DNA from: a virus
DNA: 35,119 nucleotides
Virus record (IMG/VR): IMGVR_UViG_3300020518_000004
Direction: 5' to 3' (one strand)
Below the pieces are notes generated by a model, which saw only the letters and a program-made list of their open reading frames with translations, did no database searches and was not told the origin of the DNA. The position numbers and the translations under genes are program-made. Positions 3,438 through 31,270 of the stretch are shown here, in pieces. Within the stretch, counting starts at the first letter, position 1. Every line of letters begins with the position of its first letter.

Positions 3438-3727
3438 CGGCAGCGTGGCAACGATCCGAAGGCAAAAACCCGAAAGGCGGTTTGAACGCCAAGGGTCGCG
3501 CCTCGTACAAAGCCGAGACGGGCGGGACGCTGAAGCCTCCCGTCAAATCGGGCGACAACCCACGCCGCGCATCGTTCCTCGCCCGCATGGGCAATATGCC
3601 GGGGCCGATGGAAAAGAATGGTGAACCGACGCGCCTTGCACTTGCTCTGAGAGCATGGGGCGCTGGTAGTAAGGCAGAGGCCAAATCAAAGGCCAAAGCC
3701 ATTAGCAAACGAAACGAGGGCAAGTAA
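3434..3727 (+). CDS. Small basic protein, DUF6321-like
   Basis: 97 aa. Motifs GKNPKGGLNAKGRASY, NPRRASFLARM and ALRAW match my memory of the DUF6321 family found near phage portal genes. Translationally coupled on both sides. Confidence 0.5.
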   Translation: MTAAWQRSEGKNPKGGLNAKGRASYKAETGGTLKPPVKSGDNPRRASFLARMGNMPGPMEKNGEPTRLALALRAWGAGSKAEAKSKAKAISKRNEGK

Positions 3728-8179: not shown

Positions 8180-8662
8180 ATGACTGTTTCAACTAGTAAT
8201 GTCATTGGCGTTGCCCTTGGCTATGCCGACACCACGCAGCAGTTCAACCTCGGCACCTGCGTCAACCTTGACGACGGTGGACAGGCGATTTACGTGCAGG
8301 CGGCCTCTACCGTCTCGCAGTACGCCGCCGTGTCTGTCCGTGCCGACAACAAGGCTGTGCCGGTGACGACGACCAACGCTGCCGACTCCAAGCGGTTTGC
8401 GGTCGCGCAAGTCTCTATTGCCTCTGGCTCCTTTGGCTGGGTGCAATCGGGTGGCGTGATGCGCGTCAACCTTGCGGCGTCCTGCAACCCGGCTGTCCCG
8501 CTCTTTACGACGGCGACGGCTGGCGTTCTGGATGACGCCACGGTGTCGGGTGGCGGTGTCGGCCTTGTGGCCGGTATCGTTGCCACGGCAACCGCGTCGG
8601 GTGCCACGGCGATTACCTGCGTTGCGGGCTTCCCGCACGTTGTTGGGTACTCGGGCGCCTAA
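8180..8662 (+). CDS. Putative head decoration protein (DUF2190-like)
   Basis: 160 aa, Ala/Val/Gly/Thr-rich, directly after the capsid gene. The pattern FAVAQVSIASGSFGWVQSGGVMRVNLAA resembles DUF2190 decoration-like proteins. Confidence 0.45.
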   Translation: MTVSTSNVIGVALGYADTTQQFNLGTCVNLDDGGQAIYVQAASTVSQYAAVSVRADNKAVPVTTTNAADSKRFAVAQVSIASGSFGWVQSGGVMRVNLAASCNPAVPLFTTATAGVLDDATVSGGGVGLVAGIVATATASGATAITCVAGFPHVVGYSGA

Positions 8663-9438
8663 TGAAACCTCTGGAGATCACGGTACAAGCGGCGGGAACG
8701 CCTGAAGAACTATGTTCTAACATACGTTCTGCCCTTGCCCGTGGTCTACCAGAACTGACCCTCGCTCCCATCACGCACGATGCAACCATGGTGCTGGTGG
8801 CGAGCGGGTGGTCTATGCCCGACTACATTAACGACATCAAAGCGCACCGGAAGGCCGGTCATGTGATCGGTGCAATTAAGGGTGCGCATGACTTTTTGGT
8901 AGAGAACGGCGTAGAACCAGATTTTTGGGTCAACCTTGACCCCCGCGACCGCACCAACGGTATCAAGCACAAGAACGACCGCACGCTGTACCTTGTTGCC
9001 TCGCGCTGCCCGCCCTCCACGTTTGATTACCTTCAAGGTAAGCGCGTGATGGTGTGGCACTCATGGGCTGAAGGCCCAGAAATGGACGCCATGGGGCCGG
9101 GTAAATTGGCCATCGGTGGCGGCACGACCTCGGGTCTGCGTGCCATCAACATCGGCTATATCATGGGCTTCCGTAAGTTTTTCCTGTACGGCTACGACTC
9201 GTGCAACAGCCCGGATGGACGTAAGCGGTTTACGGGCGAGTTGCCGGGGCTAACGGTAGACGTATGGGTGGGCGGCGCAGACGGCAAGAAATTTAACTGC
9301 AACGCCGCGATGGCCCAGCAGGCCAACGAATTCCAGAAATTGTTTGAGGTGATGCCCGACCTGCAAATAGAGGTCATCGGGCCGGGGCTGATTGCTGAAA
9401 TCATGCGTTGCCGCCGCAACATGGCGAAGGCGGCCTAA
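8662..9438 (+). CDS. DUF115 (MptE/Maf-like) domain protein, putative glycosyltransferase
   Basis: LVASGWS (equivalent of the GxGPS turn), GVEPDFWVNLDP, and GGGTTSGLRAINIGYIMGFRKFFLYGYDSC match the DUF115 core. TAATG coupling on both sides within the head module. Confidence 0.6.
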   Translation: MKPLEITVQAAGTPEELCSNIRSALARGLPELTLAPITHDATMVLVASGWSMPDYINDIKAHRKAGHVIGAIKGAHDFLVENGVEPDFWVNLDPRDRTNGIKHKNDRTLYLVASRCPPSTFDYLQGKRVMVWHSWAEGPEMDAMGPGKLAIGGGTTSGLRAINIGYIMGFRKFFLYGYDSCNSPDGRKRFTGELPGLTVDVWVGGADGKKFNCNAAMAQQANEFQKLFEVMPDLQIEVIGPGLIAEIMRCRRNMAKAA

Positions 9439-10831: not shown

Positions 10832-11746
10832 ATGGGCAGCACGATGGTGCAATTGGTGCAGCAATGCACAAACGAACTCGGTATCCCGACGCCCTCCACC
10901 GTCGCTGGCAATTCCAGCCAAGACGTTATCCAACTTTTGGCGTTGATGAATGCGTGTGGATACGAATTGCTCCGTCGTGCTGATTGGCGCGAATTAACGC
11001 GTCAGCATACGTTTTACACGGAAGCCATCACGACAACGGGAACGTGGTCAACGTCCTCGTACACGATCACCGGCATCCCCAGCACGACATCGCTCAACAC
11101 GACGTATCAGGTGCAGGGCGTCGGCATCCCAAACGCCACCTATGTCACGGCGGTCACAGGATCGTCTACGGTCACGATCAACTACCAGCCAACGGAAGCA
11201 CAAGTTGACGGGCAACTGATTTTCCAAAAGGTTAAATACAGCCTGCCGTCGGACTACTACAGCACGGTCAATCGCACGCATTGGGACAAGTCTAAGCGGT
11301 GGGAAATGCTCGGCCCCGAGTCACCGCAGCAGTGGGAATGGTTGCTGTCGGGTTATATCAGCACCGGCCCCCGTATCCGGTGGCGCTTGCTCGGCCAATA
11401 CTTCCAGATTTGGCCGGGAATGAACGGTGGGGAGTTGCTCGGCTTTGAGTACCGCAGTAACGCGTGGGCCTATAACGCGTTAGGCGTAGCCAAGACCAGT
11501 TTTACCGCCGACACCGATACGTGCGTCTACCCAGACCGCGTGATGGTGCTAGGCACCAAACTTAAATACTTTGAAGCCAAGGGCTTTGACACGACCGCCC
11601 TCTACCGCGATTACCTCGCCGAACTTGAAACAGCAATGGCGCAGGATATGGCAGCGGCCAACCTGTCGTTTGCCCCGCGACCGGGTACGGTGTTGATCGG
11701 TTACGACAACATCCCCGACTCGGGCTACGGGACGGATAGCCAATAA
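10832..11746 (+). CDS. Putative head-tail adaptor / tail structural protein
   Basis: 304 aa. Called from its position between the head genes and the larger tail gene. No diagnostic motif. Confidence 0.35.
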   Translation: MGSTMVQLVQQCTNELGIPTPSTVAGNSSQDVIQLLALMNACGYELLRRADWRELTRQHTFYTEAITTTGTWSTSSYTITGIPSTTSLNTTYQVQGVGIPNATYVTAVTGSSTVTINYQPTEAQVDGQLIFQKVKYSLPSDYYSTVNRTHWDKSKRWEMLGPESPQQWEWLLSGYISTGPRIRWRLLGQYFQIWPGMNGGELLGFEYRSNAWAYNALGVAKTSFTADTDTCVYPDRVMVLGTKLKYFEAKGFDTTALYRDYLAELETAMAQDMAAANLSFAPRPGTVLIGYDNIPDSGYGTDSQ

Positions 11747-13311
11747 TGGCCTCGCCGGTTCGCAGACGGCTTGTTCAGCGCACGACGGCCAACGTGGCGT
11801 CGTTGCCCGCCCCTGTCGGCGGCTGGAACGCACGCGATGCGCTGGCAAACATGGCCCCAACGGACGCTGTGTACTTGGAAAATATGTTTCCAAGCGTATC
11901 CAACGTCAATTTGCGAGGTGGTTACACGAAGCACAAGACGGGGCTGCCGGGAACTGTTGATACGCTGATGACGTACAACGCAGGCAGCACGATCAAACTG
12001 TTTGCGATCAGCGACGGCAAGATTTTTGACGTAACGTCGGCAGGTAGCGCCGGGTCAGCGTTGGTTGCGAGTCTCTCCAACTCTGCATGGGAGTACACCA
12101 ACGTCACCACGGGCGGCGGTAGTTATTTGTATGCCGCGAACGGTGTGGACAAGCCGTTGCTCTACAACGGCACGACTTGGACACCAATTGACGGCACAAG
12201 TTCGCCTGCCATCACAGGCGTTACCACAACGAGCCTTGAAAGCCCCACGCTTTTCAAGAATCGGATGTGGTTTATTGAGAAAAACACGCTTAAAGCGTGG
12301 TATTTGCCGGTTGCATCAGTAGGTGGTGCAGCCAACGTGCTAGACCTCTCAAGCGTTATGCACCTCGGCGGCAAACTGACCGCGATGGCTACATGGACGA
12401 TTGACGCAGGCTACGGCGTTGACGATAACCTTGTTTTGGTGAGCGATAAGGGCGAGGTTGCGGTATATCGCGGCACTGACCCGACCAGCGCATCCACTTG
12501 GGCATTGATCGGCGTGTGGATCATCGGTTCGCCGATTTCGCGCCGTTGCGTGACAAAATACGGCGGTGATTTGCTCATTTTGACGCTGGACGGGCTAATT
12601 CCGTTCGCCTCGGCGCTACAGTCGTCGCGGTTAGACCCCAACATCGCGCTGTCCGACAAGATACAGGGTGCTTTTGCTGCTGCCGCACGCACCTACAAGG
12701 ACACCTTTGGGTGGGCGTTGCTTTATAACCCGCTCAACAACGCGCTGATCGTCAATGTTCCCGTCAGCACCGGCCAGCAGCAGTTTGTGATGAACAACAT
12801 CACCAAGGCGTGGTGCAACTTTACTGGGTGGAATGCGTCGTCGTGGGCGTTGGTCGGCAATGAACCGTACTTTGGCGGCAACACCTACGTTGCAAAGGCG
12901 TGGACAACGGGTGACGGTGGCTATGCCGATGACGGTGAGCCGATCCCGACCAAGGCGCTGCAAGCATTTAACTACTTTGAGACGCGTGGCGTCATCAAAT
13001 ACTTTACCCGCGCACGACCGAGCATCTTTAGCAACGGGCAGCCTGCCATTGTTATCGGTATCAACACCGACTTTCAGACGGTTGACCAGACGGGTGCGTT
13101 GTCGTTTTCGCCAACAACCGCAGGATTGTGGAATGTTGGTTTATGGGATGTTGCGCTATGGGGTTCTGATGTCGTCATCACGAACAACCAATCTGGCGTG
13201 ACAGGACTCGGTTACTCGGGAGCCATTTCGTTCACGAGTAGCAGTAAGAATTTGCAGATTCAATGGGCATCAACAGACGTTGTGTATCAAATCGGATGGG
13301 CTGGAATATAG
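11746..13311 (+). CDS. Putative tail (nozzle/tubular-type) structural protein
   Basis: 521 aa, TAATG coupled, beta-rich composition. Called from position in a podovirus-like tail module. Confidence 0.35.
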   Translation: MASPVRRRLVQRTTANVASLPAPVGGWNARDALANMAPTDAVYLENMFPSVSNVNLRGGYTKHKTGLPGTVDTLMTYNAGSTIKLFAISDGKIFDVTSAGSAGSALVASLSNSAWEYTNVTTGGGSYLYAANGVDKPLLYNGTTWTPIDGTSSPAITGVTTTSLESPTLFKNRMWFIEKNTLKAWYLPVASVGGAANVLDLSSVMHLGGKLTAMATWTIDAGYGVDDNLVLVSDKGEVAVYRGTDPTSASTWALIGVWIIGSPISRRCVTKYGGDLLILTLDGLIPFASALQSSRLDPNIALSDKIQGAFAAAARTYKDTFGWALLYNPLNNALIVNVPVSTGQQQFVMNNITKAWCNFTGWNASSWALVGNEPYFGGNTYVAKAWTTGDGGYADDGEPIPTKALQAFNYFETRGVIKYFTRARPSIFSNGQPAIVIGINTDFQTVDQTGALSFSPTTAGLWNVGLWDVALWGSDVVITNNQSGVTGLGYSGAISFTSSSKNLQIQWASTDVVYQIGWAGI

Positions 13312-13739
13312 TCAGCGGGCCGGAAATCGGCCATTGGGTAACGGCGCAAACCGACGGGTCATTTTGGCCCGAGCGGGCAACGGCCATCGGACTTAAAAAG
13401 GACGGTCAGATTGTCGCCGGTACGGTTTACGAGATGTGGAACGGCAAATCGGTCGTTTGCCACATTGCTTGGAACCGCGTAACCCCTGCCTACGTCGCCG
13501 CCGTCTACGATTATGCGTACAACGTCTGCGGAGTTGATAAGATAATAGGGCCAATCAGCAGTAACCATACCCGGGCGCTGAAACTGGTCACAAAAATGGG
13601 GTTTTCGGAGGAGGCGCGGATCAAACAGGCCGCGCACGACGCCGGGGACATCGTATTTATGACTCAGACACCTGAAAAGTGTCGTTATTTGGAGCCTCGG
13701 TATGGGCAAAAGATCACCAGCACCGCCGCCAACACCTGA
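13296..13739 (+). CDS. GNAT-family N-acetyltransferase embedded in the tail/internal-protein module
   Basis: Core IVAGTVYEMWNGKSVVCHIAW...NHTRALKLVTKMGFSEEARI resembles the GNAT beta4-alpha3 and alpha4 region. The start is uncertain (ATG at 13296 or 13263). It overlaps both neighbouring genes. Confidence 0.55.
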   Translation: MGWNIVSGPEIGHWVTAQTDGSFWPERATAIGLKKDGQIVAGTVYEMWNGKSVVCHIAWNRVTPAYVAAVYDYAYNVCGVDKIIGPISSNHTRALKLVTKMGFSEEARIKQAAHDAGDIVFMTQTPEKCRYLEPRYGQKITSTAANT

Positions 13740-16700
13740 TTACGCCGCCATTGCGCGGCAGCAAGGTCAGGAGAACATAGAAGCCGCTCGTCAGTCGGCT
13801 TATATGTCCAATCCCAACGTCTACACGCCTACGGCGCAGCAGACGGTAACGTGGCAGCGCACGCCGCAAATCAATCAGGCTGCGTATGACCAAGCAATGG
13901 CTGATTATCAAGCCAACGTGCTGCGTGATCCTGATATGGCGTCAGGAGCAGCACCTGATATTGCGCAATTCACGACTTACGTTGAGCAACCGACCATCCG
14001 ACAGGAGTTGGTTGGCCCTGCCAAAGACATTTTTGGCACGCAGCAGCAAGCCGAACAGGCGATGGCAAATTTGGGACTGCGTGAAATCGGCGACCTGTCG
14101 TCGTTTCTTAACCAAAACTTTGCCGCCCAACTTCCTGCCATCCAGACCCAACTTGGTCAGTACGGACAGGTCGCAGGCGCACCCAACCTTGCTGGTTACG
14201 GCACGGCTGGCGCACCCGGTGCGGGGGAATTTGGCGCGGTATCAGGCGCACCTAGCGCGGCGCAGTATGGCCCTCGCTCAACCTTTACTGCCGAAACCAT
14301 GCCGGGAATGTATGCACCTGTTGGGCAGGCGCAACAAGGCATCGGCGCGTTTGGTGACGTTGCGCAGGCTCCCGACCTTACTGGCATGGGTCAGGCGGGC
14401 GGTAATGTCGCACTGACAGGTTTTACAGGCGGCCCCTCGGGCGGCCAGTTTGGTATGGCAGGCGGTGGGCCAGCCGCGTACAACCTCGGTCAACTTGACC
14501 TCTCAGGCGTCGGCGGTGTCGGCGGTGGCCCCGCTATGGGTCAGTACGGCATGGCACAAGCCGGCCCCGGCGGCGTGCAGTTTGGTGGCCTAGACCTTTC
14601 GGGGCTTGGCACCGCACAAGGATTTGGCAATCTCGGTCAGTACGCCGCAGGCGCTGGCCCCAATGCCCCGAATGTCCAAGGAGCCGACTTCTCACGCGTT
14701 GGGCAGATTGGCCCCGGCGTTGGCTACGGTCAGTTTGGAATGGCCGGTGGCGGCCCTGCTGCGGGCCTGTACGGCATGGCCGGTGCTGGCCCAGCGGGCG
14801 TGCAGTTTGGCGGCCTTAACCTTGCAGGAATGCAAGGCGTACAAGGCGGCGTTGGGCAGTTTGGTCAAGCACAAGGCGGCCCCGCAGGGTTGAATCTTGG
14901 CGGGTTTGATACCTCACGCCTCGGTGAAATCGCAGGTGGCCCGTCAGCCGATCAGTTTGGTCGTGCCATCGGTGGCCCTGCCGCACCGTCACTAGAAGAA
15001 AACCTTAACCTTTCAGGCGTCGGCGATGTTGCCCGCAACGTGCAAGAGGGCCGATTTGGCTACGCACGCGGTGAGTTAGCAACACCAGAACTTCAACGGC
15101 AGTTGGCAACGCAAGGGCTTGCCGCCATGCCAGTCAACGCGGGAATGACGGCGCAAAACGCCATCATGTCGCGCCTTGAGCCGCAATTGCAGCGTGAACG
15201 TGCGCAGTTGGAGCAGCGCCTTGTCAACCAAGGCTTGCGACCGGGCGGTGAGGCGTACAACGCAGAGATGGAACTGCAAGCGCAACGTGAAAACGATTTG
15301 CGCACGCAAGCGGCATTGCAAGGCATCAGCCTAGACGCCTCCATGCGTCAGCAGGGACTTGCCGAACAACAGACCCTTGCCGACTTTGCCAACCAAGCCG
15401 CACTCGCGCAGTTTGGAGCAGGCGCACAAGGCTTGGGACTCTACAACGAAGCCCTCGCGCAAAACTTCCAGCAGTCGCTTGCCGCACAGTCTGCGCAGAA
15501 CATGGCGCAACAGCAGGCATTCCAGCAGCGCCTACAGGCGGGTCAGTTTGGCCGTGAAGCGCAGATGGCGTCCTTTGGTATGGGCCAACAGGCACAACAA
15601 GCGGTCAACCAAGCGCAACAGCAGAACTTTGAGCGTGCGTTGGCTGCCCAACAAGCGCAAAACGCCGCACAAGCACAAGGTTTTGGGCAAGAAATGGCCG
15701 CGCAGCAGTTTGGCCGTGAGGGTGCGCTGGCAGGATTTGAGACGCAACAAACAGCACAGCAAGCGCAGAACGCAGCAATTGCGCAAAACACGCAATTGGC
15801 GTTGCAGTCAGGTCAGTTTGCAAACCAAGCGCAGGCACAAGACTTTGCACAACGTCTCGCCGCTGGAGAGTTTGGACAAGAAGCACAATTGGCTTCTTTC
15901 CAGACGGGTCAAGCGGCACAAGAGGCGATCAACCGCGCCATTGCTCAGAACTTTGCACAAGGTCAAGCCTCACAGCAGTTGCAAAACCAAGCGGTGCAGC
16001 AAAACTTGCAGGGTGCATTGGCGACCGAGGAAGCCCAACGTGCCGCGCAAGCGCAACAGTTTGGTCAAGCCGCGACCCAAGCAGAACTTGGCGCACAATT
16101 GACCGGCCAGCAGTTTGCGATGGGTCAACAGGCGCAGCAGGCTGCAAACCAAGCACAAGCGCAAAACTATCAGCAAGCCCTTGCGGCTGCGCAGATGGGC
16201 AACGCCGCACAACAACAGAATTTCTTGCAACGTGTGGCCGCAGGCGAGTTTGGCCGAGAGGCACAACTTGCGACGTTCCAAACGGGACAGCAGGCGACAC
16301 AAGCGCAGAACCAAGCCGCCCAGCAAAACTACCAGCAAGCGTTGGCGTTGCAGCAGATGCAAAACCAAGCGCAACAGCAGCGTTATGGTCAAGCGGTTGG
16401 CGCAGGAGAGTTTAACCGTCAGGCGTTACTTGCACAGTTTGGCATGGGGCAACAAGCCCAGCAGGCACAAAATCAAGCCATGGCGCAGAACTTTGCGCAG
16501 GCTCAAGCCGCTGCGCAGATGCAGAACCAAGCAGCGCAAGGTGCGTTTGGCCAGCAAGTCACGGCACAGGAACTGCGCAATCAAGCCTTGGGTCAAAACC
16601 AACAGGCCGCGTTGCAGCAGCAACAAGCCGCCATGCAAGCCCAGCAGCAGCGTTACGCGCAGCAGATGGGCCTTGGACAGTTTGCGAACCAAGCCGTTGC

Positions 16701-17307
16701 ACAGAACCAGCAACAAGCATTGGCCGCTTATCAAGCCAATTTGGCGCGTCAGCAGCAGGGCTTCCAGCAAGCCGGTGCGCAGGCTGGATTCTTCAACGAA
16801 GCACAGGCACAGGCATACCAGCGTGCGATGGCCGAACAAGCCGCCGCCAACGCTGCACAGCAGCAACGCTTTGGTCAGGGCATGGACATTCGTGGCTTGC
16901 AGAACGCCGCGATTTTGCAGAACCAGCAGGCCGCACTTACGCAGCAAGCCGCCGCAAATGCCGCGCAACAGCAGCAGTACAACCAAGCGATGGGTGCAGG
17001 CACGTTCGGCAACCAAGCCATCCAGCAAGCGTTGCAGCAGCAGGTTGCACTACGCAATCAGCCGCTCAACGAAATCTCTGCGTTGCTCTCGGGATCGCAG
17101 GTACAGATGCCGCAGTTCCAAGGCTACAGCGGCGTCACGGTTGCACCAACACCGTATCTACAAGCCATGCAGGCGCAAGATGCCGCAAATATCCAGCGTT
17201 ACGGTATTGCTGCAAACCAAGCCGCAAGCGGTATGTCAGGTCTATATGGGTTGGCAGGCGCAGTCGCAGGCGCACCGAGCGGTGGATTTTTAAGTGGTTT
17301 ATTTTAA
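13702..17307 (+). CDS. Giant low-complexity Gln/Ala/Gly repeat protein, putative internal virion/ejection protein
   Basis: 1201-aa ORF with a GGAG ribosome-binding site. It sits where podoviruses encode internal core proteins. Two repeat regimes are visible (see findings). Confidence 0.8.
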   Translation: MGKRSPAPPPTPDYAAIARQQGQENIEAARQSAYMSNPNVYTPTAQQTVTWQRTPQINQAAYDQAMADYQANVLRDPDMASGAAPDIAQFTTYVEQPTIRQELVGPAKDIFGTQQQAEQAMANLGLREIGDLSSFLNQNFAAQLPAIQTQLGQYGQVAGAPNLAGYGTAGAPGAGEFGAVSGAPSAAQYGPRSTFTAETMPGMYAPVGQAQQGIGAFGDVAQAPDLTGMGQAGGNVALTGFTGGPSGGQFGMAGGGPAAYNLGQLDLSGVGGVGGGPAMGQYGMAQAGPGGVQFGGLDLSGLGTAQGFGNLGQYAAGAGPNAPNVQGADFSRVGQIGPGVGYGQFGMAGGGPAAGLYGMAGAGPAGVQFGGLNLAGMQGVQGGVGQFGQAQGGPAGLNLGGFDTSRLGEIAGGPSADQFGRAIGGPAAPSLEENLNLSGVGDVARNVQEGRFGYARGELATPELQRQLATQGLAAMPVNAGMTAQNAIMSRLEPQLQRERAQLEQRLVNQGLRPGGEAYNAEMELQAQRENDLRTQAALQGISLDASMRQQGLAEQQTLADFANQAALAQFGAGAQGLGLYNEALAQNFQQSLAAQSAQNMAQQQAFQQRLQAGQFGREAQMASFGMGQQAQQAVNQAQQQNFERALAAQQAQNAAQAQGFGQEMAAQQFGREGALAGFETQQTAQQAQNAAIAQNTQLALQSGQFANQAQAQDFAQRLAAGEFGQEAQLASFQTGQAAQEAINRAIAQNFAQGQASQQLQNQAVQQNLQGALATEEAQRAAQAQQFGQAATQAELGAQLTGQQFAMGQQAQQAANQAQAQNYQQALAAAQMGNAAQQQNFLQRVAAGEFGREAQLATFQTGQQATQAQNQAAQQNYQQALALQQMQNQAQQQRYGQAVGAGEFNRQALLAQFGMGQQAQQAQNQAMAQNFAQAQAAAQMQNQAAQGAFGQQVTAQELRNQALGQNQQAALQQQQAAMQAQQQRYAQQMGLGQFANQAVAQNQQQALAAYQANLARQQQGFQQAGAQAGFFNEAQAQAYQRAMAEQAAANAAQQQRFGQGMDIRGLQNAAILQNQQAALTQQAAANAAQQQQYNQAMGAGTFGNQAIQQALQQQVALRNQPLNEISALLSGSQVQMPQFQGYSGVTVAPTPYLQAMQAQDAANIQRYGIAANQAASGMSGLYGLAGAVAGAPSGGFLSGLF
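15460..16485 (+). repeat. Phased coding tandem repeat: units of 162 nt (54 aa) starting at 15460, 15622, 15784, 15946 (one 216-nt unit), 16162 and 16324. Degenerate continuation to about 17040.
   Basis: Each unit opens with a CAA/CAG-AAC-(TTY/TAY/ACG) codon triplet (QNF/QNY/QNT) at exactly those coordinates. Consensus: QNFxxALAAQQxQNxAQxQxFxQxxAAGEFGREAQLAxFxTGQQAxQAxNQA. Confidence 0.85.
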
Positions 17308-17319
17308 CAGAGGTGGCTA

Positions 17320-17718
17320 ATGAACGGACGACGCCCAATGAATATGCCGATGCAGCCTGACCGTCGCCCACAAGAGTTGGCGCGTATGTTGGCGATGCAG
17401 GAACGCAACGCATCGCTTGACGGCATGACGCCGCGTCAGCCGCAGCAGCCATCGCTTGCTTACGCAGGGGCTACGCCAAACTCAGCCCCCGGCGTTGCAC
17501 CGCAGAACATGAACTTTAACGGCCCGCGTGGCCCAGCGCAGTACACCGGCCCGATCAGCAACCCCGCAATGAGTGCCATGGCACCGCCGCAACAAGGCGC
17601 ACCGCAAGTGGGCGGCATGAAGCGTCCGCAAGGTGCAGGCGCACGCGGGTATCCGTCCTCCCCCGGCATGACGACGCCGCAGGGAGGCACCTACCGAGGG
17701 GACTTTGATGGCAATTAA
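17320..17718 (+). CDS. Pro/Gln/Gly/Met-rich low-complexity protein
   Basis: 132-aa ORF with a GAGGTGG ribosome-binding site, directly after the giant repeat gene. Confidence 0.55.
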   Translation: MNGRRPMNMPMQPDRRPQELARMLAMQERNASLDGMTPRQPQQPSLAYAGATPNSAPGVAPQNMNFNGPRGPAQYTGPISNPAMSAMAPPQQGAPQVGGMKRPQGAGARGYPSSPGMTTPQGGTYRGDFDGN

Positions 17719-19000
17719 ATCGTACGAGGCATTCAAGCCTCCATCACCCTACGATCAAGAACGACGCCGCGCAGAGCAGCAGCGCCGTTACGCCGAACTG
17801 CTGCAACAGCAAGCCTTAGCAGAGGAGGAGCCGTTTACCTATCAGGGTATTCGGGCCATGCCGTCGCCGCTGACCGCGCTGACCAAGATGCTGCAAGCCT
17901 ACGGCTCTAAAAAGGCGTTGGAGAAGGCAGAGGAAGCCGAGCAAAAGGCAGCCGAAGCCGATATTGCAGGTGCAGAGCGGCTGCGTCAGGAATTGGCACC
18001 GCAAGCGCGTGTTGCTGCCCCGACAACCGCTGAAATTGCGGCCAGCGTTGGTATGCCGCAAGTCGGTGCGGAAGGCGACGTAACATATGGCGCACCGCAG
18101 CAAGCGCCTATGCGCACAGAGATGGTTGGCCCGACTGCAAAAGAACGTCAAAACATCTTTGCAAATTACGCCGCAACCGGAACGCCGACGGCGCAGCGTC
18201 TTGCGCAAGTTATGGCAGCGCAAGAGCCAAAAACTCAGACGATGGAGTTTGGCGATCAGTTGTTTAACATTAGCGATGGCATGGCTACGCCTGTAATGAT
18301 GGATGGCAAGCCTGTAACGGCGTCACCAAAACCGGCGGCGGGCAGTTCGTTAAGCAAATTGATTGCAGAACGCGAGGCATTGCCGCTAAACAGTCCGTTG
18401 CGCGCAACATATGATGCGGCAATTTCTAAAGAAACAACGCAATCTGCACCAGTACGCATTGATCTTGGAGCAAAGGGTGATGCGGAAGCACAAAAAATCT
18501 TTTTGGGAGACATTGGCACAATGCGTCCACGGGCTAATGCTGCCAAAAACATTATTAAATCAGTCAACAATCTTGATCGGTTGACGCAGAAAGGAACTTA
18601 CACCGGCGCTTTGGCTACAGGAGCGGTTGGAGCAGGGCAATTCTTAAACAGCCTTGGAATTAAAGTTGATCCAGAGACATTGAAAAACACTGAGGCGTTT
18701 TCTGCGCAGGTCAGTGATTTGGTTCTGTCTACTCAAGCCGCTTTGGGCGGTGCGCGTGGGTTTACAAAAGAAGAAACTGCAATTTTGGAAAGAATGTTCC
18801 CGCAAATTGTCAACAGTCCTCAAGCGCGTGTTGCTATCGGAAATATCATTCGCAACAAGCAACTTGACGTAATTGATGAATACGATTCGCTGATTGATGA
18901 CTATTACTCAACTTACAAAGACTCCAAGATTCCTTACAAAAAGATTGATGACGAAGAAGTGCGCTATCAGCGATGGAAGCGCAACCAAGGAGGTTTGTAA
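17708..19000 (+). CDS. Putative internal virion protein
   Basis: 430 aa from the ATG at 17708 (the ORF-track start at 17705 is TTG). GAGGGG ribosome-binding site 7 nt upstream. Helical, charged N-terminus. Confidence 0.5.
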   Translation: MAIKSYEAFKPPSPYDQERRRAEQQRRYAELLQQQALAEEEPFTYQGIRAMPSPLTALTKMLQAYGSKKALEKAEEAEQKAAEADIAGAERLRQELAPQARVAAPTTAEIAASVGMPQVGAEGDVTYGAPQQAPMRTEMVGPTAKERQNIFANYAATGTPTAQRLAQVMAAQEPKTQTMEFGDQLFNISDGMATPVMMDGKPVTASPKPAAGSSLSKLIAEREALPLNSPLRATYDAAISKETTQSAPVRIDLGAKGDAEAQKIFLGDIGTMRPRANAAKNIIKSVNNLDRLTQKGTYTGALATGAVGAGQFLNSLGIKVDPETLKNTEAFSAQVSDLVLSTQAALGGARGFTKEETAILERMFPQIVNSPQARVAIGNIIRNKQLDVIDEYDSLIDDYYSTYKDSKIPYKKIDDEEVRYQRWKRNQGGL

Positions 19001-20643
19001 TGGAAGATTACTCTCTAGAGGAAATTGAACGCTTCAAAAGGCGTTTTGCCGAGGAACAGGGCCGCCAAAATGTGGAGGCAATGACTCACTCTGCCCAAGC
19101 CCCTGCTCCCGTCTCGTCCACACCGCAAGCGCGTATGTTTGACCCTAAAACCGGCACTGTCGGCGGTGAGGTCAACCCATTGGTGCGTGCATTGATGGGC
19201 GTAGGCGCTGGCGTTGAGCGGAGCGTTTCAAGCCTTGGCGAATTGTTGGGCTTGGTGTCGCCAGAGCGTTATCAGCAAACCCAAGAGCAAAACGAACCGT
19301 TTACGCAAGGGCCAGAAGGATCGGCAGGGCAGTTTGTGGGCGAAACAGCCGCAACGTCACTAATGGGCGGCCCTGTAGGTCGTGCATTGCGTATGGGCGG
19401 CCCCGCAATGCGCAGCGCAATAGAAAGCGGCGTGACAACTTATGCAACAGCCGATCCGCAAGACCGTCGCACAGAGGGTGCTTATGGTGCATTGGCAGGA
19501 GGCGGCCTAACAAAAGGAGGTCAAGCCTTGCGTGGTTTAACGCACGGCATTGATATGTCGCCGGCTGCTCGTCGGTTGACAGCAAAAGGCGTTGAATTGT
19601 CGCCCGGCCAAATGGCTCCTGACAGCACTTGGGCAATGATTGAAGAATCTATGATGAACATTCCGTTCATCCGACCCAAGGTTGTCGCGGCAAGACAACG
19701 CGGGTGGCAACAAACACAAGAATTGATTGGCAAGGAAGCGGCACCGCCGGGGTATACGCCTCCGTCTCGCGCAGATGTGCGCGATACATACAACGATTTA
19801 AAGGACGCATATAACGAAGCATATGGTCAATTTAAAAATTACCCATTGCAACCAGTTTTAATGCGGGTTGAAGGCGGAGATGTGCCGCTGTCGCAAGCCA
19901 TGGCAATCCCTCGCCAAGCGGCTGCTGACGTTAAGTCGCGTCGGTATGTGCAAAACTTTATTGATACCGAGTTAAGCCGAGTTAAGGGCCGGCAATTAAC
20001 CAGCGGAGATTTGCTAGAAATTAGATCAAACATTCGCGCAAAATTGCGCGATATGTCAGGAAATCAAAGTTTCCCTGACGCAGAAAAACTGCTAAAAACT
20101 TCAGAGAAAAAGGCGACAGAGATATTAGAGTCGCAGTTGCCGCCTGACGCCATGAAAGCGTTACGCGCAGTAGACGCTAAATATGGCAATTTCAAAGTTT
20201 TGGAAGATGCTGTTTATCGCTCCATAGATCAGCCAGAGGCTTTTACGCCAAAACAATTTTCCGGTGCGGTAAGGCAAAGCGCAGGTGGCAAAGGACAGTA
20301 TGCTGGCGGCGGCGGCAGAATGAGAAACATTGCTGCAGAATCCGCAGATGTGTTTTCGCCCCGAACGCCCGTAACTGGCGCACAACAACCAAGCCAACTT
20401 GTCGGTTATGCAACGGCAGTCCCGGCTGCATTTGTATATAGCGATCAAGGCCGAAAGTTAGGCCGAGTGTTGGCGGGCCAAACGGATGTACAGCGCCAAA
20501 TTCAAGATTTTGAACGGCAGTTCCGACGTAAATTATCGGCACAAGAGCGGGAAGATTTAGCGCGTGTGTTGCGCATGGGTGCATCACAATATGCGGCTGA
20601 AGAAAAGCCGTTTTTTGCGACGACAAAGGAGTATTTTAAATGA
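19000..20643 (+). CDS. Putative internal virion protein
   Basis: 547 aa from the ATG of the TAATG at 19000, with an AAGGAGG ribosome-binding site. Precedes the tail fibre. Confidence 0.5.
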   Translation: MEDYSLEEIERFKRRFAEEQGRQNVEAMTHSAQAPAPVSSTPQARMFDPKTGTVGGEVNPLVRALMGVGAGVERSVSSLGELLGLVSPERYQQTQEQNEPFTQGPEGSAGQFVGETAATSLMGGPVGRALRMGGPAMRSAIESGVTTYATADPQDRRTEGAYGALAGGGLTKGGQALRGLTHGIDMSPAARRLTAKGVELSPGQMAPDSTWAMIEESMMNIPFIRPKVVAARQRGWQQTQELIGKEAAPPGYTPPSRADVRDTYNDLKDAYNEAYGQFKNYPLQPVLMRVEGGDVPLSQAMAIPRQAAADVKSRRYVQNFIDTELSRVKGRQLTSGDLLEIRSNIRAKLRDMSGNQSFPDAEKLLKTSEKKATEILESQLPPDAMKALRAVDAKYGNFKVLEDAVYRSIDQPEAFTPKQFSGAVRQSAGGKGQYAGGGGRMRNIAAESADVFSPRTPVTGAQQPSQLVGYATAVPAAFVYSDQGRKLGRVLAGQTDVQRQIQDFERQFRRKLSAQEREDLARVLRMGASQYAAEEKPFFATTKEYFK

Positions 20644-27152: not shown

Positions 27153-27710
27153 TTAGGAGCCGCATAAACCCTCCACGCTATAGTTGGTACTCGGTGACTT
27201 CCAATCCCTCGGTACGTCGCCCGTAATCCATGACGGGTCTTTCCACAGCAATCGGTTATTTGGGTAGGCAATCCATGGGCCGGTGTCTAGCGCGATGATG
27301 TGGTGGTCTTTGCTCTGGTCAGGCACCTCTGCCCAACCGCCATTGGCCCAAAACACACTAAACAAATACGTCCCCGCACGCATGACCTTATCGCGGCCCA
27401 GCGCCTCAACGCGGTGATTGCGGAGCATCTGCATCTCGCGCACCTCGCAATGCCTACTGAACGAGTCCCACCACACAGACAGGTTAAGCGATAGCGGTTC
27501 ACAGGGTTTGGAGCAAAGCGCGTGGATTGGGATTCTGGCCCATTGTGCGCCGTTCTCTAACATCACTTGGAACATCGGCACTCGGGCAGGTTCAGCGCGG
27601 AACCCAAACACGGTACAGAGCGTAAACTTGCCATGCCCGCTCTGCTGGTCGTACAGGAACTCGTTACGGACGTAAGCCGTGGTGTACGGGGTGTCTACGA
27701 CAAAACTCAC
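27153..27710 (-). CDS. Conserved phage hypothetical protein
   Basis: 185 aa, GTG start in a GTGA overlap with the upstream gene. C-terminal motif IAYPNNRLLWKDPSW seen in other phage proteins of unknown function. Confidence 0.55.
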   Translation of the reverse strand: MSFVVDTPYTTAYVRNEFLYDQQSGHGKFTLCTVFGFRAEPARVPMFQVMLENGAQWARIPIHALCSKPCEPLSLNLSVWWDSFSRHCEVREMQMLRNHRVEALGRDKVMRAGTYLFSVFWANGGWAEVPDQSKDHHIIALDTGPWIAYPNNRLLWKDPSWITGDVPRDWKSPSTNYSVEGLCGS

Positions 27711-27994
27711 ACCAACCCCTCTTTTTCAAGTTGTGCGATGGTGCGGGCCATGCCGTCATAGTGGGCAAGGCGTAGTTCATCGTGTGACAGACCGCTTTTG
27801 TGCGTCCTGCCGTCTATTTCGTCGTGACAGGCGCTACACGCCCACGCACCGATTAAGTCAGGTGATTTCATGCCCATGCCGCTAATGCCCGCCAAACGGA
27901 TATGCGCCAATACCACGGTTTCGCTGTTAAAGTTACAGATACCGGGTAAACGCACCATGCAGCCGCGTCCTTTGGCTTCTTTACGCAGACTCAT
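27707..27994 (-). CDS. ybcO: DUF1364 protein, homologue of E. coli DLP12 prophage YbcO (zinc-binding, putative nuclease)
   Basis: Near-collinear similarity to YbcO as I recall it: LRKEAKGRGCMVRLPGICNFNSETVVLAHIRL...SPDLIGAWACSACHDEIDGRTH. Confidence 0.75.
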   Translation of the reverse strand: MSLRKEAKGRGCMVRLPGICNFNSETVVLAHIRLAGISGMGMKSPDLIGAWACSACHDEIDGRTHKSGLSHDELRLAHYDGMARTIAQLEKEGLV

Positions 27995-28391
27995 ACACCG
28001 GCTCCGGTATCACAATGCCCATATCCGCGCACCGCGACTCTAAAAACAATAAGTAATCGCTAAACTCTTGCTTGGTCAGCGCCGAGGATCGTTTAAGCGG
28101 CCGCATACGCTTACGCCCAAACCCCTCCAGCGTTTCCCAGCCGAAACATTCACCAAGGAAGTATTCGTGCAGGTCATCGCGTGTCCATCCCGCTAACGCC
28201 TCACCGCCGCCCTCCAAGATCGCGGGGTAACACACACCCCACAGAAATGCGTTTTGCTGCTGCGTGCGGGGCTTTTTCCATTCCACAATCTCTATGCACC
28301 ACGCTCGGTCAGCCGACAACCCCTGCACCATGCGTGCGGCTGCTGTCGCTAACTGCTCGGGCGTCGTGCCTTTAGGAAATATGCGCTTCAC
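27981..28391 (-). CDS. ninB: NinB/Orf-family recombination mediator
   Basis: KKPRTQQQNAFLWGVCY motif (RS..QN..lW core of lambda NinB). 136 aa. GTG start in a GTGA overlap. Confidence 0.65.
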   Translation of the reverse strand: MKRIFPKGTTPEQLATAAARMVQGLSADRAWCIEIVEWKKPRTQQQNAFLWGVCYPAILEGGGEALAGWTRDDLHEYFLGECFGWETLEGFGRKRMRPLKRSSALTKQEFSDYLLFLESRCADMGIVIPEPVYESA

Positions 28392-29523: not shown

Positions 29524-29782
29524 CCCAATTGTCCTCGCTCAACTGCGGCTTCTTGGTTGGCTGACGCTGCGGTTCACCGCCACGCGACAATTTGCCCTCA
29601 CCCTTGGCCTCTATCTTCAGGCTCATAAACTTATCGCCTGTTTTCTTGCTGGCCTTTATCCATGCCGAAATGTTGTAGTCCACGTTATTGATAACGCATG
29701 ACCCACGGTAGTCGGGACGGTTCGGGTTGTCGCCCTTGTCGTTCTTAAACAGCACGCCCTTCATGTTTGGATCGTAATTCAC
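29501..29782 (-). CDS. Small ssDNA-binding-like protein (DUF736-like OB fold with an SSB-type acidic tail)
   Basis: GVLFKNDKGDNPNRPDYRGSCVINNVDYNISAWIK pattern and C-terminal WDDLDAPF, resembling the SSB DDDIPF tip. GTG start in a GTGA overlap with a GGAGAAGG ribosome-binding site. Confidence 0.55.
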   Translation of the reverse strand: MNYDPNMKGVLFKNDKGDNPNRPDYRGSCVINNVDYNISAWIKASKKTGDKFMSLKIEAKGEGKLSRGGEPQRQPTKKPQLSEDNWDDLDAPF

Positions 29783-30399
29783 AATTTCACCTTCTCCAGT
29801 TGTTTCACTTTCTCGTCTAACTCTGCGAGGAACTTACGCACCTCGGTTTCAAGTTCTGCGATACGGGTTTCGTCACGCGGAACACGCACGATCAGCAGTT
29901 GCAGATGCTCGGGCAAACGTGGGTCGTAACTACAGAATTCACACCACGGCGCACCCGTCACCGCCATCTGCCATTGCATCTGAGTGACGTACTTTTCAGG
30001 AGGTTTTCCCGACAGCACGTACTCCAAATGGGTAGCCGTATTCGGGCATTTAATCTCTATCAACCCGTCGCCCACAAAACCGTCAGGGGACGCGCCAGAG
30101 CCGGGAATGTCGTGATGCGGGATAAACCCCACCTCCTCTACCAACTCGCCTGTCTTGGCGCTATACGCGGCCCGTGCTTGCGGTTCGGTCTGCGTACCCC
30201 ACTCCATCGCGGCATTGCTAAACATTTCGGTCGGCTTTCCGGTCAATCGTTCGCAAATCAACTGCGCCATGTAATTTTCACGGCTTGCCGAATACCCGCT
30301 CTTGGTCTTGGCTACTACGTCAGCCACACGGCTAGCGGTTACTTTGCCGAGGCGTGCTTGTAACCATGCCTCGCGGTTAGCCTGTTGGTACGATTCCAT
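29779..30399 (-). CDS. YqaJ-type (lambda Exo-like) recombination exonuclease
   Basis: WLQARLGKVTASRVADV, GASPDG, and LIEIKCP (E-x-K) motifs of the YqaJ family. Confidence 0.8.
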   Translation of the reverse strand: MESYQQANREAWLQARLGKVTASRVADVVAKTKSGYSASRENYMAQLICERLTGKPTEMFSNAAMEWGTQTEPQARAAYSAKTGELVEEVGFIPHHDIPGSGASPDGFVGDGLIEIKCPNTATHLEYVLSGKPPEKYVTQMQWQMAVTGAPWCEFCSYDPRLPEHLQLLIVRVPRDETRIAELETEVRKFLAELDEKVKQLEKVKL

Positions 30400-30737
30400 T
30401 ATCGCCCCCTCGTTTTAAGTAAAACGTCATACCGCTTGATCCCGCATTTTATTGCGCGTGTTACGACGTAAGGCTCTACGCCAAACATTTCAGCAATTTC
30501 TACGTTGCTCAAAACCAATTTCCTCTGTGCGTCCAACTGGCGCAATAACCGATACTGTTCTAGCGTCAATTTTTTATCGTTAAACGACGAACGAAACGAC
30601 AAACGCAGCAATCCCCTTTCGTTTGGGAAATCCATCACAAACGTCTGTTCACCCGTTGCGTTATTTTTTTTGCTCTCAGAAAACCAACCAAGTTGTTCAT
30701 ATAATTCAACACGGATGTCGTCAATGTGTTGTTCCAT
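30399..30737 (-). CDS. Hypothetical protein with a C-terminal HTH
   Basis: 112 aa from ATG 30737, with GGAGG 7 nt upstream. The segment LSNVEIAEMFGVEPYVVTRAIKCG is HTH-like. Confidence 0.55.
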   Translation of the reverse strand: MEQHIDDIRVELYEQLGWFSESKKNNATGEQTFVMDFPNERGLLRLSFRSSFNDKKLTLEQYRLLRQLDAQRKLVLSNVEIAEMFGVEPYVVTRAIKCGIKRYDVLLKTRGR

Positions 30738-31270
30738 CACGCAGCCTCCGGGCCGGTCAGTTCCTTCTTGCGGGCGGTAAACGCATCAATGTGCGTCATG
30801 CGCTGTTCTTTGGTCAGGCGCTTAAACAACTTGGTCAGTTCGTCCAGCGATGCAGCACCCGCAATCAACGCAACCAGATCGGGGTCTACTTGTGGCGCGG
30901 CTCCTTCTGGCAAATCTTCGCCCGCGTAGATGTACAAGCCGAGGCCAAACATGGCGATGCACTTGGCAAGGCACCGCATGATCGCGGTGTTGACTGAGAA
31001 CGCGTCGGGGTTTTGGATCGCTCGGTTACGGTTGTCCATAACCGGCAACACGCACGTTTTGATGTCGCCCTTTATCTCTACGCTGACCTTCACCATCGCG
31101 GTGCCGTCGGGCAGATACATGGCAGGACGGTCGCTGTACTCATGTGCCGTCCAACGTGCAGCCGGATCAATCTTCAACACCTCGGCCCATGCCCACGCCC
31201 ACGACAAGTAAGACAGGTTGCCCTTCTTCTCAACGTGGTCGTTGACATTAATTTTTAGTAATTCGCTCAT
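30737..31270 (-). CDS. Single-strand annealing protein, Sak/DUF1071 (Rad52-like)
   Basis: LSYLSWAWAWAEVLK, LPVMDNRNRAI and MRCLAKCIAMFGLGLYIYAGEDLP are the hallmark DUF1071 blocks. Confidence 0.8.
   Translation of the reverse strand: MSELLKINVNDHVEKKGNLSYLSWAWAWAEVLKIDPAARWTAHEYSDRPAMYLPDGTAMVKVSVEIKGDIKTCVLPVMDNRNRAIQNPDAFSVNTAIMRCLAKCIAMFGLGLYIYAGEDLPEGAAPQVDPDLVALIAGAASLDELTKLFKRLTKEQRMTHIDAFTARKKELTGPEAA

Follow-up and report, generated by a model that had tools for sequence, protein, structure and literature searches.

The closest described counterparts of the system discussed here are the first ejection proteins of short-tailed phages, gp7 of P22 and gp14 of T7. In situ, P22 gp7* is a dodecamer whose mid-sequence 'fingertip' docks between the subunits of the gp10 hub, and its monomer folds back on itself to form an extracellular channel spanning the gap of ~6 nm between the hub and the outer membrane (bioRxiv 10.64898/2026.09.03.749273). 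The bundle is stabilized by an extensive Q/N/Y hydrogen-bond network, and the V-shaped, Gly-rich C-terminus of gp7 (I191-F229) makes up the outer-membrane helices (bioRxiv 10.64898/2026.09.03.749273). Proteins of the gp14 type are 181-240 amino acids (aa) long and the most size-conserved of the ejection proteins (PMC8954989). The gene analyzed here lies in IMG/VR virus record IMGVR_UViG_3300020518_000004, a stretch of 35,119 nt that we refer to as a whole as the window. It encodes a protein of 1201 aa from a family ranging from 271 to 1541 aa across ~300 relatives, which sets it apart from the small gp14-like proteins. We propose, with a probability of roughly 0.55, that this window protein is ejected from the first slot of the ejection operon and builds a length-tunable channel leading from the hub of the tail to the outer membrane.

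The original prediction recognized no characterized phage protein family here, but the protein belongs to phrog_6121 ('virion structural protein'). In PHROGs, its aa 482-612 match profile positions 139-249 of 392 (E 3.1e-26), and short homologues fit the same profile end to end (E 4e-48 and 4e-38). With the N-terminal 157 aa as query, the GenBank phages returned a single phage, Manatee Spring phage MW202489, and blastp aligned residues 1-51, 114-204 and 224-300 of its 303-aa 'structural protein' colinearly with residues 1-55, 460-556 and 1118-1196 of the window protein. Hidden Markov models (HMMs) of the three conserved blocks fall on aa 5-54 (B1), 478-553 (B2) and 1114-1167 (B3). The window protein is therefore a core of ~300 aa with two large insertions, ins1 and ins2, which we call the Gly arm and the rod. 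Other short forms are p54 of Mx8 (333 aa), the 'structural protein' of the Brucella phages (Tb_23 and its counterpart in Pr, 326 aa), gp12 of Rhizobium phage RHph_Y25 (339 aa, 'putative peptidase_S74 domain-containing structural protein') and a protein of a Bradyrhizobium phage. These share with the window protein the N-terminal MGK..PAPP.PDY domain, the central NxG(L/I)xxGxxA(Y/W) hairpin, the PLNE(I)xAL..G.QV..PQF block, the Gly-rich tail and the slot directly after a GNAT-like gene. The window protein is however ~4x longer, with a Gly arm of ~340 aa in place of a linker of ~60-75 aa and a 558-aa rod of 18-residue repeats in place of 0-20 aa, and it lacks the S74 domain carried by Mx8 p54, Tb_23 and RHph_Y25 gp12.

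In all, 334 homologues of the window protein were recovered, and with a cutoff of E<=1e-3, 7989 cluster representatives from a set of 1.84 billion proteins matched a profile of the short forms; the phrog_6121 family is thus very widespread. Longer members exist, such as those on the IMG/VR contigs L015 (2033-6658; 1541 aa, with a Gly arm of 526 aa and a rod of 740 aa or 41 units) and L018 (4722-9164; 1480 aa, rod 704), so that the family extends beyond the size of the window protein. Megablast of window positions 1-25000 against the GenBank phages gave no match, and neither did tblastn with the whole protein, probably because of the low-complexity filter, or with a central fragment. A sequence search of the PDB with the 1201-aa protein gave nothing meaningful, and the short-form profile found no PDB entry below E 0.38.

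The open reading frame (ORF) is uninterrupted and, at 3606 of 35119 nt (10.3%), is the largest in the window, the next one encoding 969 aa; this bears out the earlier observation that it takes up about a tenth of the genome. The protein is made up of 20.6% Q, 20.3% A and 13.4% G, and it contains only two Lys (K3 and K108), one Trp and neither Cys nor His. Gly reaches 28.7% over aa 151-460, together with aromatic-Gly motifs, while aa 621-1130 are 31.0% Q and 25.5% A. The estimate that Gln makes up a quarter or more of the C-terminal half agrees with the 29.0% Q over aa 601-1201. The original prediction also described a Gly/aromatic region followed by Gln/Ala repeats. Both regions are present, but the second is a strict 18-residue repeat and not loose low complexity. 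Its autocorrelation peaks at 18, 36, 54 and so on, its aromatic residues are spaced at multiples of 9, and it stacks as 31 x 18 residues with zero indels and a 54-aa super-period.

The consensus of the rod unit is A-L-A-A-Q-Q-[AF]-Q-N-Q-A-Q-Q-Q-N-[FY]-Q-Q. Across 2379 units from 144 relatives, N8 is kept in 78%, A10 in 82%, Q13 in 85% and F/Y15 in 75% of units, and column 6 is filled by Ala, Phe, Leu or Met in ~97%. The rod carries almost no charge; 38 of its 558 residues are charged, and the net charge is about -4. If the repeat is wound as an 18/5 helix, two seams would lie ~180 degrees apart, one formed by L1/N8/F15 and the other by A3/A6/A10/Q13/Q17, and this is the pattern that would be expected of helices which each touch two neighbours in a sheet or barrel wall. 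A beta-solenoid was considered for the 18-aa repeat and rejected; the sequence is Ala/Gln-rich with few beta-branched residues and shows neither a period-2 nor a period-6 signal, and AlphaFold2 (AF2) predicts helix.

The central finding concerns the lengths of the two insertions, which were measured with the HMMs of the three blocks in ~300 non-identical family members. In the long clade, the rod is 200+18k aa long (200, 218, 236 ... 740) in all 144 database proteins and in 63 IMG/VR loci. The Gly arm is not quantized but varies continuously from 58 to 526 aa, and its length follows that of the rod with a Spearman coefficient of 0.96 overall (n=302); taken separately, the long clade gives 0.84 and the short clade 0.80. 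The median arm climbs with each rod class, from 214 aa at a rod of 200 to 422 aa at 560, with one exception represented by a single sequence, and the arm tracks the rod at ~10.6 aa per 18 aa. Repeat-number variation among homologues, which had been suggested as worth surveying, is thus extensive and is accompanied by co-variation of the Gly arm.

As a control for ancestry, close pairs with N-domains >=93% identical were compared. Among 88 such pairs, rod differences of 18, 36, 54, 72, 90 and 108 aa go with median arm differences of 11, 21, 31, 43, 53 and 63 aa, and rod differences of 126, 144, 162, 180, 198 and 216 aa with 74.5, 84, 96, 104, 117 and 131 aa. Where the rods are equal, as in 129 close pairs, the arms differ by a median of 0. 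The compensation is clearest in a single comparison with the protein of IMG/VR contig L010, which is 98.3% identical to the window protein and has insertions of 32 aa following aa 362, in the arm, and of 54 aa following aa 743, in the rod; apart from one further single-residue indel, the two proteins do not differ in length. Over seven independent events, the distances of the arm indel and the rod indel from the central hairpin are proportional (r=0.94, exact permutation p=0.001, slope ~0.5). In the simplest reading of these sequence comparisons, both low-complexity regions extend from the central hairpin next to each other in antiparallel orientation, and only length-matched combinations survive; ~10.6 arm residues would then oppose each 18-residue helical unit of 27 A. 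A hairpin folded within the rod itself is disfavoured, since the compensation for single rod indels of 18 or 54 aa lies in the Gly arm and not elsewhere in the rod. Rod length was also compared with tail-fibre length at 20 loci, where short rods occur with fibres of 578-698 aa and long rods mostly with fibres of 930-1195 aa. This trend has exceptions, a plateau and phylogenetic confounding, and is not used as evidence.

Structure prediction was done with AF2 on the monomer (residues 2-1201, alignment of 63 homologues). The N-terminal domain is predicted to consist of helices at 13-35, 58-74 and 105-134 and strands at 44-56 and 90-102, and it starts with the conserved MGK(R/K)SPAPPP.PDY, in which G, K, P, P and Y are invariant columns. 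The central hairpin is formed by helices 475-508 and 516-570, and no motif of the family is conserved better than the LxNQGLRPGGEAY at its tip, with a cluster of invariant columns. Long helices with breaks run through aa 581-1128, and by inspection the breaks fall mostly at G-x-F-G. The last 70 aa are disordered in the model, with very low confidence for aa 1129-1200. In the Gly arm, repeat dissection and a unit HMM identified a position-specific unit, and 17 [FY]G motifs were counted. A short form was predicted with a score of 81 on the predicted local distance difference test (pLDDT) and shows the same N-domain and long helices. The view that the protein is almost devoid of ordinary sequence beyond aa 150 therefore does not hold, as conserved blocks are found at 475-570, a high-confidence helical hairpin, and at 1114-1167. 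Foldseek searches of the PDB with the models of the window protein and the short form returned only generic coiled coils (best E 0.4 and 1.3).

The genomic position was correctly described beforehand as lying after the tail/adaptor genes and before the tail fibre, with genes resembling tail-tubular A and B upstream and the fibre gene downstream (Table 1). The order tubeA-tubeB-GNAT-[family]-small-IVPC-IVPD, where IVP stands for internal virion protein, is kept in the Manatee, Bradyrhizobium, Rhizobium, Brucella and Mx8 phages and in JGI contigs, and in every annotated relative the family gene lies directly 3' of a GNAT-like or 'N-acyltransferase' gene. The Mx8/Brucella-Pr lineage has been reported to carry the classic IVPA-D complement, its GNAT-like IVPA gene being the homologue of P22 gp14 and T7 gp13 (PMC10386132). 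Taken with this homology, synteny therefore places the gene in the IVPB position, i.e., that of T7 gp14 and P22 gp7. The internal-virion slot assigned in the original prediction is thus supported, as the gene directly follows the GNAT-like IVPA and precedes two larger proteins, one of which matches a 'DNA ejection protein' PHROG. The product is probably a virion protein, as the 'structural protein' annotations of short homologues, among them those of Brucella phages, indicate indirectly. The downstream IVPC-like (407-535 aa) and IVPD-like (535-702 aa) proteins stay approximately constant in size while the first-slot protein varies about five-fold, as would be expected were the changes limited to the channel's extracellular part.

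Table 1. Coordinates of the gene, the parts of its product and the neighbouring genes in the window.
Feature	Position (nt)	Strand	Evidence or remark
Tail-tubular-A-like gene	10832-11746
Tail-tubular-B/hub-like gene, 521 aa, presumed docking platform	11746..13311	+	phrog_5107 E 2e-123
GNAT-like IVPA gene	13263..13739	+	phrog_4470 E 3e-27; 38-nt overlap with the start of the phrog_6121 gene
Whole gene, expanded phrog_6121 member in the IVPB/first ejection-protein slot	13702..17307	+	ORF, PHROG match, colinear blocks, 334 homologues
N-terminal alpha/beta domain, aa 1-135	13702..14106	+	AF2 pLDDT 82-95 for aa 11-120
Gly/aromatic arm (ins1), aa 136-474	14107..15123	+	~30-32-aa repeats, consensus GQFGMAGGGPAAPQLGGLDLSGVGGVQGGP
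Central helical hairpin (block B2), aa 475-555	15124..15366	+	AF2 pLDDT 86-96 at aa 481-540
Gln/Ala rod (ins2), aa 556-1113	15367..17040	+	31 consecutive 18-residue units
C-terminal block B3, aa 1114-1167 (..RNQPLNEISALLSGSQVQMPQFQGY..)	17041..17202	+	HMM block in 274/277 family sequences
Gly/Ala/Ser hydrophobic 'glycine-zipper' tail, aa 1168-1201, ending ..GLYGLAGAVAGAPSGGFLSGLF	17203..17304	+
132-aa P/G/Q/M-rich ORF	17320-17718	+	presumed ejection-protein operon
431-aa ORF	17705-19000	+	presumed ejection-protein operon
556-aa ORF	18973-20643	+	presumed ejection-protein operon; phrog_26400 'DNA ejection protein' E 1e-7
Tail fibre, 969 aa	20640-23549	+	Peptidase_S74 at aa 847-904

P22 gp7 and T7 gp14 resemble the window protein in their operon position, after a gp14/gp13-like gene and before two larger ejection proteins, and in being A/G/Q/N-rich and largely helical. 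The C-terminus of gp7, ..GAAIGGGIGLLGSLF (..GGGIGLLGSLF), is moreover a glycine zipper ending in ..LF, as is that of the window protein (..GFLSGLF), and by inspection the Gly/Ala/Leu tail ..GLYGLAGAVAGAPSGGFLSGLF resembles the outer-membrane-embedded tail of gp7. The fold-back architecture with two arms has been observed for gp7* and would, from the coupled lengths, apply to the window protein as well. Among the differences, one arm would be a Gly/aromatic strand in the window protein but is a second helix in gp7, and gp7 is processed at its N-terminus (annotated cleavage by host OpdA), whereas the phrog_6121 family uses a C-terminal S74. Because the slot, the inferred fold-back, the Gln/Asn-rich helical wall and the glycine-zipper C-terminus are common to both, we propose that the window protein does the job of gp7.

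Like gp7*, the window protein would be packaged in the capsid and be the first to leave on ejection. It would then oligomerize on the tail hub, with the conserved hairpin tip as the probable point of contact, and form an extracellular DNA channel whose glycine-zipper C-terminus inserts into the outer membrane. In this arrangement, the central hairpin may sit at the hub end, and the N-domain and the C-terminal tail at the membrane end, so that the Gly arm and the rod would be the two antiparallel arms of one long hairpin reaching from hub to membrane. The rod arm would be a helix with almost no charge and a rise of ~27 A for each 18-aa unit, kept together by hydrogen bonds of Gln/Asn and by aromatic/Ala seams, and the Gly arm an extended Gly/aromatic strand with ~10.6 residues per rod unit. 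Paired arms with this rise would make the length of the channel adjustable in quanta of ~2.7 nm. The channel here is predicted to be tens of nm long, up to ~84 nm if the rod is a single straight helix, and could act as a deployable tail extension. Across the long clade, a rod passing once would measure 30-111 nm, lengths that are calculated from the repeats and that extra folding would shorten. Among the three functions offered in the original prediction, an extended conduit and a length ruler fit best with the 18-aa quantization, the matched arms and the glycine zipper, while a condensate scaffold does not.

A more far-reaching version, which we hold to be less likely than not, is that a long tail-like conduit of ~30-110 nm is put together from the ejected protein outside the virion and deployed after adsorption, with a two-component 'zipper' wall of helix and antiparallel Gly strand, of a kind not described before, that is tuned in 2.7-nm steps by compensating indels. 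Podoviruses would thereby have an equivalent of the tape measure, perhaps fitted to hosts with thick surface layers.

Tape-measure proteins of long-tailed phages have periodic aromatics, change their length in repeat quanta, and carry hydrophobic Gly-rich segments that have been proposed to enter the membrane. Like the window protein, they are long and largely helical, and their length is proportional to a physical distance, as that of the window protein would be. However, the window protein matches no tape-measure family in Pfam or PHROGs, and the tail module of the genome is of the podovirus type (tubeA/tubeB), with neither tail-tube nor sheath genes. Tape-measure proteins also measure a pre-assembled tail, whereas the structure here would be a channel formed after ejection. 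In keeping with the original prediction, no tape-measure or core-protein profile in Pfam, PHROGs or the PDB matched the repeats. A second likeness is to the pilot protein H of phiX174, a virion-carried DNA tube that forms a helical decameric coiled coil with a Gly-zipper transmembrane segment and an amide-rich lumen. Protein H has 7- and 11-residue repeats and comes from an unrelated type of virus, while the window protein has 18-residue repeats and a partner Gly arm; the two are likened by description.

Several points weigh against a gp7-like channel. With hhalign, the family profile gave a probability of 0.2% each against P22 gp7 and T7 gp14. The HMM of the C-terminus scored 22.2 bits on gp7 compared to 13.4+/-3.5 for shuffles (~2.5 standard deviations), with 8 of 500 shuffles scoring equal or better, and this score appears weak and mostly compositional. 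As there is no detectable homology and no PDB match by sequence or fold, the link to gp7/gp14 is positional and architectural only. The AF2 monomer shows the Gly arm as disordered and lacking secondary structure, with a pLDDT of 32-42 over most of it (aa 171-470), and is uninformative on contacts between the arms. The co-variation over all sequences is inflated by shared ancestry, and the controls based on close pairs and paired indels rest on ~7 independent events. To our knowledge, a conduit of 84 nm is also unprecedented for a short-tailed phage. Finally, S74 intramolecular-chaperone domains are otherwise found on trimeric external fibres and spikes, and their presence in the family fits an external fibre at least equally well.

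The last point concerns the relatives, as ~54% of those in the long clade and 38% of those in the short clade end in a 62-aa domain, SDRRLKSNI...MVNYGLL. This SD(R/E)R(L/M)K.. module matches Pfam Peptidase_S74 (PF13884) over about its full length and, like the endosialidase and tail-fibre C-termini of that group, has the Ser-x4-Lys spacing of the catalytic dyad. It differs from these in being a minimal version borne by a protein of the ejection slot and not by a fibre. The C-termini of the homologues run on as ..GLAGSLGSAAIM followed by SDRRLKSNI.., while the window protein stops at the point of this cleavage site, ..GLYGLAGAVAGAPSGGFLSGLF. Pfam finds no S74 in the window protein, and neither an S74 nor a remnant of one is present in any frame downstream of the stop codon. 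Since a relative that is 87% identical and has identical arm lengths does carry the domain, its gain and loss appear recent and frequent. The fibre encoded three genes further on (132, 431 and 556 aa in between) has its own S74, and the phage thus retains S74 on the fibre though it is without the one that relatives have on the ejection-slot protein. In the many relatives that carry the domain, its probable role is to act as a chaperone or cap for the hydrophobic tail before it removes itself by cleavage, a step that would be dispensed with here. In the literature searched, nothing relevant came up on S74 in connection with internal virion proteins or on ejection proteins rich in glutamine.

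The main rival reading takes the protein as an external trimeric central tail fibre or needle, chaperoned by S74, in which the rod would project from the tail tip as a long trimeric coiled coil and serve to search for the receptor or to puncture the envelope. We regard this as possible, if improbable. About half of the homologues, including Mx8 p54, Tb_23 and RHph_Y25 gp12, end in an S74 with the dyad, and relatives in UniProt/BFVD are mostly named 'intramolecular chaperone auto-processing domain containing protein', some also 'tail fiber domain-containing'. The L1/N8/F15 seam with its 7-7-4 spacing is compatible with a coiled-coil core, and the trimeric needle of P22 is encoded near this position. 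However, the gene lies after and not before the P22 gp14-like IVPA, which is the position of gp7 and not of gp26, and the 969-aa tail fibre with its S74 is already encoded separately. Short members keep all core blocks yet are nearly rodless (ins2 about 0-20), and cleavage by S74 would leave as the C-terminus a hydrophobic glycine zipper similar to the gp7 tail embedded in the membrane. A simple parallel coiled coil also leaves unexplained why the Gly arm matches the rod in both length and indel position.

Less probable again is an internal core or spacer protein, which would organize or anchor the DNA spool, or tune volume and pressure alongside a smaller genome, and which would not form a long conduit. 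This agrees with the first-slot proteins of T7 and cyanophage A4, which form the innermost pre-ejectosome layer on the portal; A4 gp29 is ordered only in its N-terminal 92 of 380 residues and contributes a long helix to a decamer. Contigs with long forms cluster at 34-37 kb and those with short or intermediate forms at 38-43 kb, which is consistent with a trade-off between the volumes of DNA and protein. With major capsid proteins of about equal size, genome length and internal protein mass may indeed be traded against each other. Filling of volume does not, however, explain the 18-aa phase, the position-matched paired indels or the membrane-type tail. The rod, with its few charges and net charge of about -4, has no basic DNA-binding surface, unlike A4 gp26/gp27.

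An intrinsically disordered gel or condensate, either prion-like or similar to FG-nucleoporins, that plugs the channel or serves as an intracellular scaffold after ejection, is quite improbable. The charge-poor composition rich in Q/N/G and aromatics, the many [FY]G motifs of the Gly arm, the very low AF2 confidence at aa 136-474 and 1129-1200, and a second low-complexity protein (132 aa) encoded next door would all fit such a material, and the composition had been called prion-like or condensate-like beforehand. This label does not agree with the fixed positions over the 2379 rod units, with ~200 long-clade sequences that are free of phase-breaking indels, or with the helix predicted for the rod. 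The Gly region is itself built of a position-specific 30-aa unit, and the deterministic coupling of the lengths together with the position-matched indels indicates a defined paired structure.

That the gene is an assembly artefact of repeat collapse or expansion, or a chance-open non-coding stretch of low complexity, as its repetitive protein sequence on a metagenome-type contig could suggest, has a negligible probability given that exact DNA repeats within it are at most 18 nt long, the 54-nt units share 42% identity on average (maximum 76%), independent IMG/VR contigs encode proteins 87-98% identical to it in unchanged register, and the N- and C-terminal blocks are kept across thousands of family members. 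Tandem Repeats Finder reported no array in the gene beyond trivial short ones, and the repeats are therefore old at the DNA level. With more than 300 homologues of like architecture from independent metagenomes, the sequence comparisons indicate that the gene is neither chance nor artefact. Pfam gave zero matches for the protein at E<=1 and thus no enzymatic domain, in agreement with the absence of enzymatic motifs noted at the outset.

For the neighbouring genes, the gene of MW202489 that is syntenic with the tail-tubular-B-like gene is annotated as 'phage stabilization protein', and TubeB of this lineage has been described as 'distantly P22-like' (PMC10386132). Sequence searches of the PDB with tubeB and with the 431- and 556-aa ORFs gave nothing meaningful. 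The ORFs of 132, 431 and 556 aa have the order and sizes of Mx8 p55/p56/p57 and Tb_24/25/26. The 132-aa ORF is rich in Pro, Gly, Ala, Gln and Met and has neither a PHROG nor a Pfam match, and Mx8 p55 (119 aa) and Brucella Tb_24 (138 aa, N/Q/M-rich) stand at the same position; the operon therefore contains a second conserved small protein of low complexity. An MGK[KRPS] N-terminus is kept in ~185 members of the phrog_6121 family. The GNAT-like neighbour has an acyltransferase fold, and this protein might be a candidate modifier of Gly2 or Lys3 of the window protein.

Elsewhere in the window, a recombination module lies on the opposite strand (-) and encodes NinB (27981-28391), an exonuclease resembling RecE (29779-30399) and an annealing protein resembling Sak (30737-31270); beside it is a gene whose PHROG family carries the annotation 'ferredoxin' (27153-27710, -). 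The window ORFs scanned included no integrase. A 258-aa ORF at 8662-9438, for which the PHROG search was blank, is syntenic with a 251-aa gene of IMG/VR contig L007 (4984-5739), located between the capsid and tail genes, that matches the Pfam family MptE-like (PF01973). A search of the GTDB genomes for the host gave only four fragments, in metagenome-assembled genomes (MAGs), and no prophage. Two fragments (L090 and L092), 59-91% identical to the window protein, lie on 1.5-1.7-kb contigs in a freshwater Rhodobacteraceae MAG and are a weak hint of the host, or else phage contamination of the bin.

Two properties appear to be unreported in the literature searched, namely the 18-residue quantization, for which indels at matching positions of the Gly arm compensate, and the sporadic self-cleaving S74 cap. 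Of all parts of short-tailed phages, the ejection proteins are understood least, and the size rule for their first slot, where gp14 and gp7 are described as small and size-conserved, is broken about five-fold by the phrog_6121 family. If true, the sporadic S74 would be the first self-cleaving chaperone on an ejection protein. The lock-step, position-matched indels imply that two regions of apparently low complexity form a defined paired structure, which calls for caution when such regions are labelled disordered or prion-like. Collectively, the family provides a natural 'allelic series' of hundreds of variants that differ in whole 18-aa steps with a compensating change in a second region, and this renders the question of what sets the length of a channel from hub to membrane testable.

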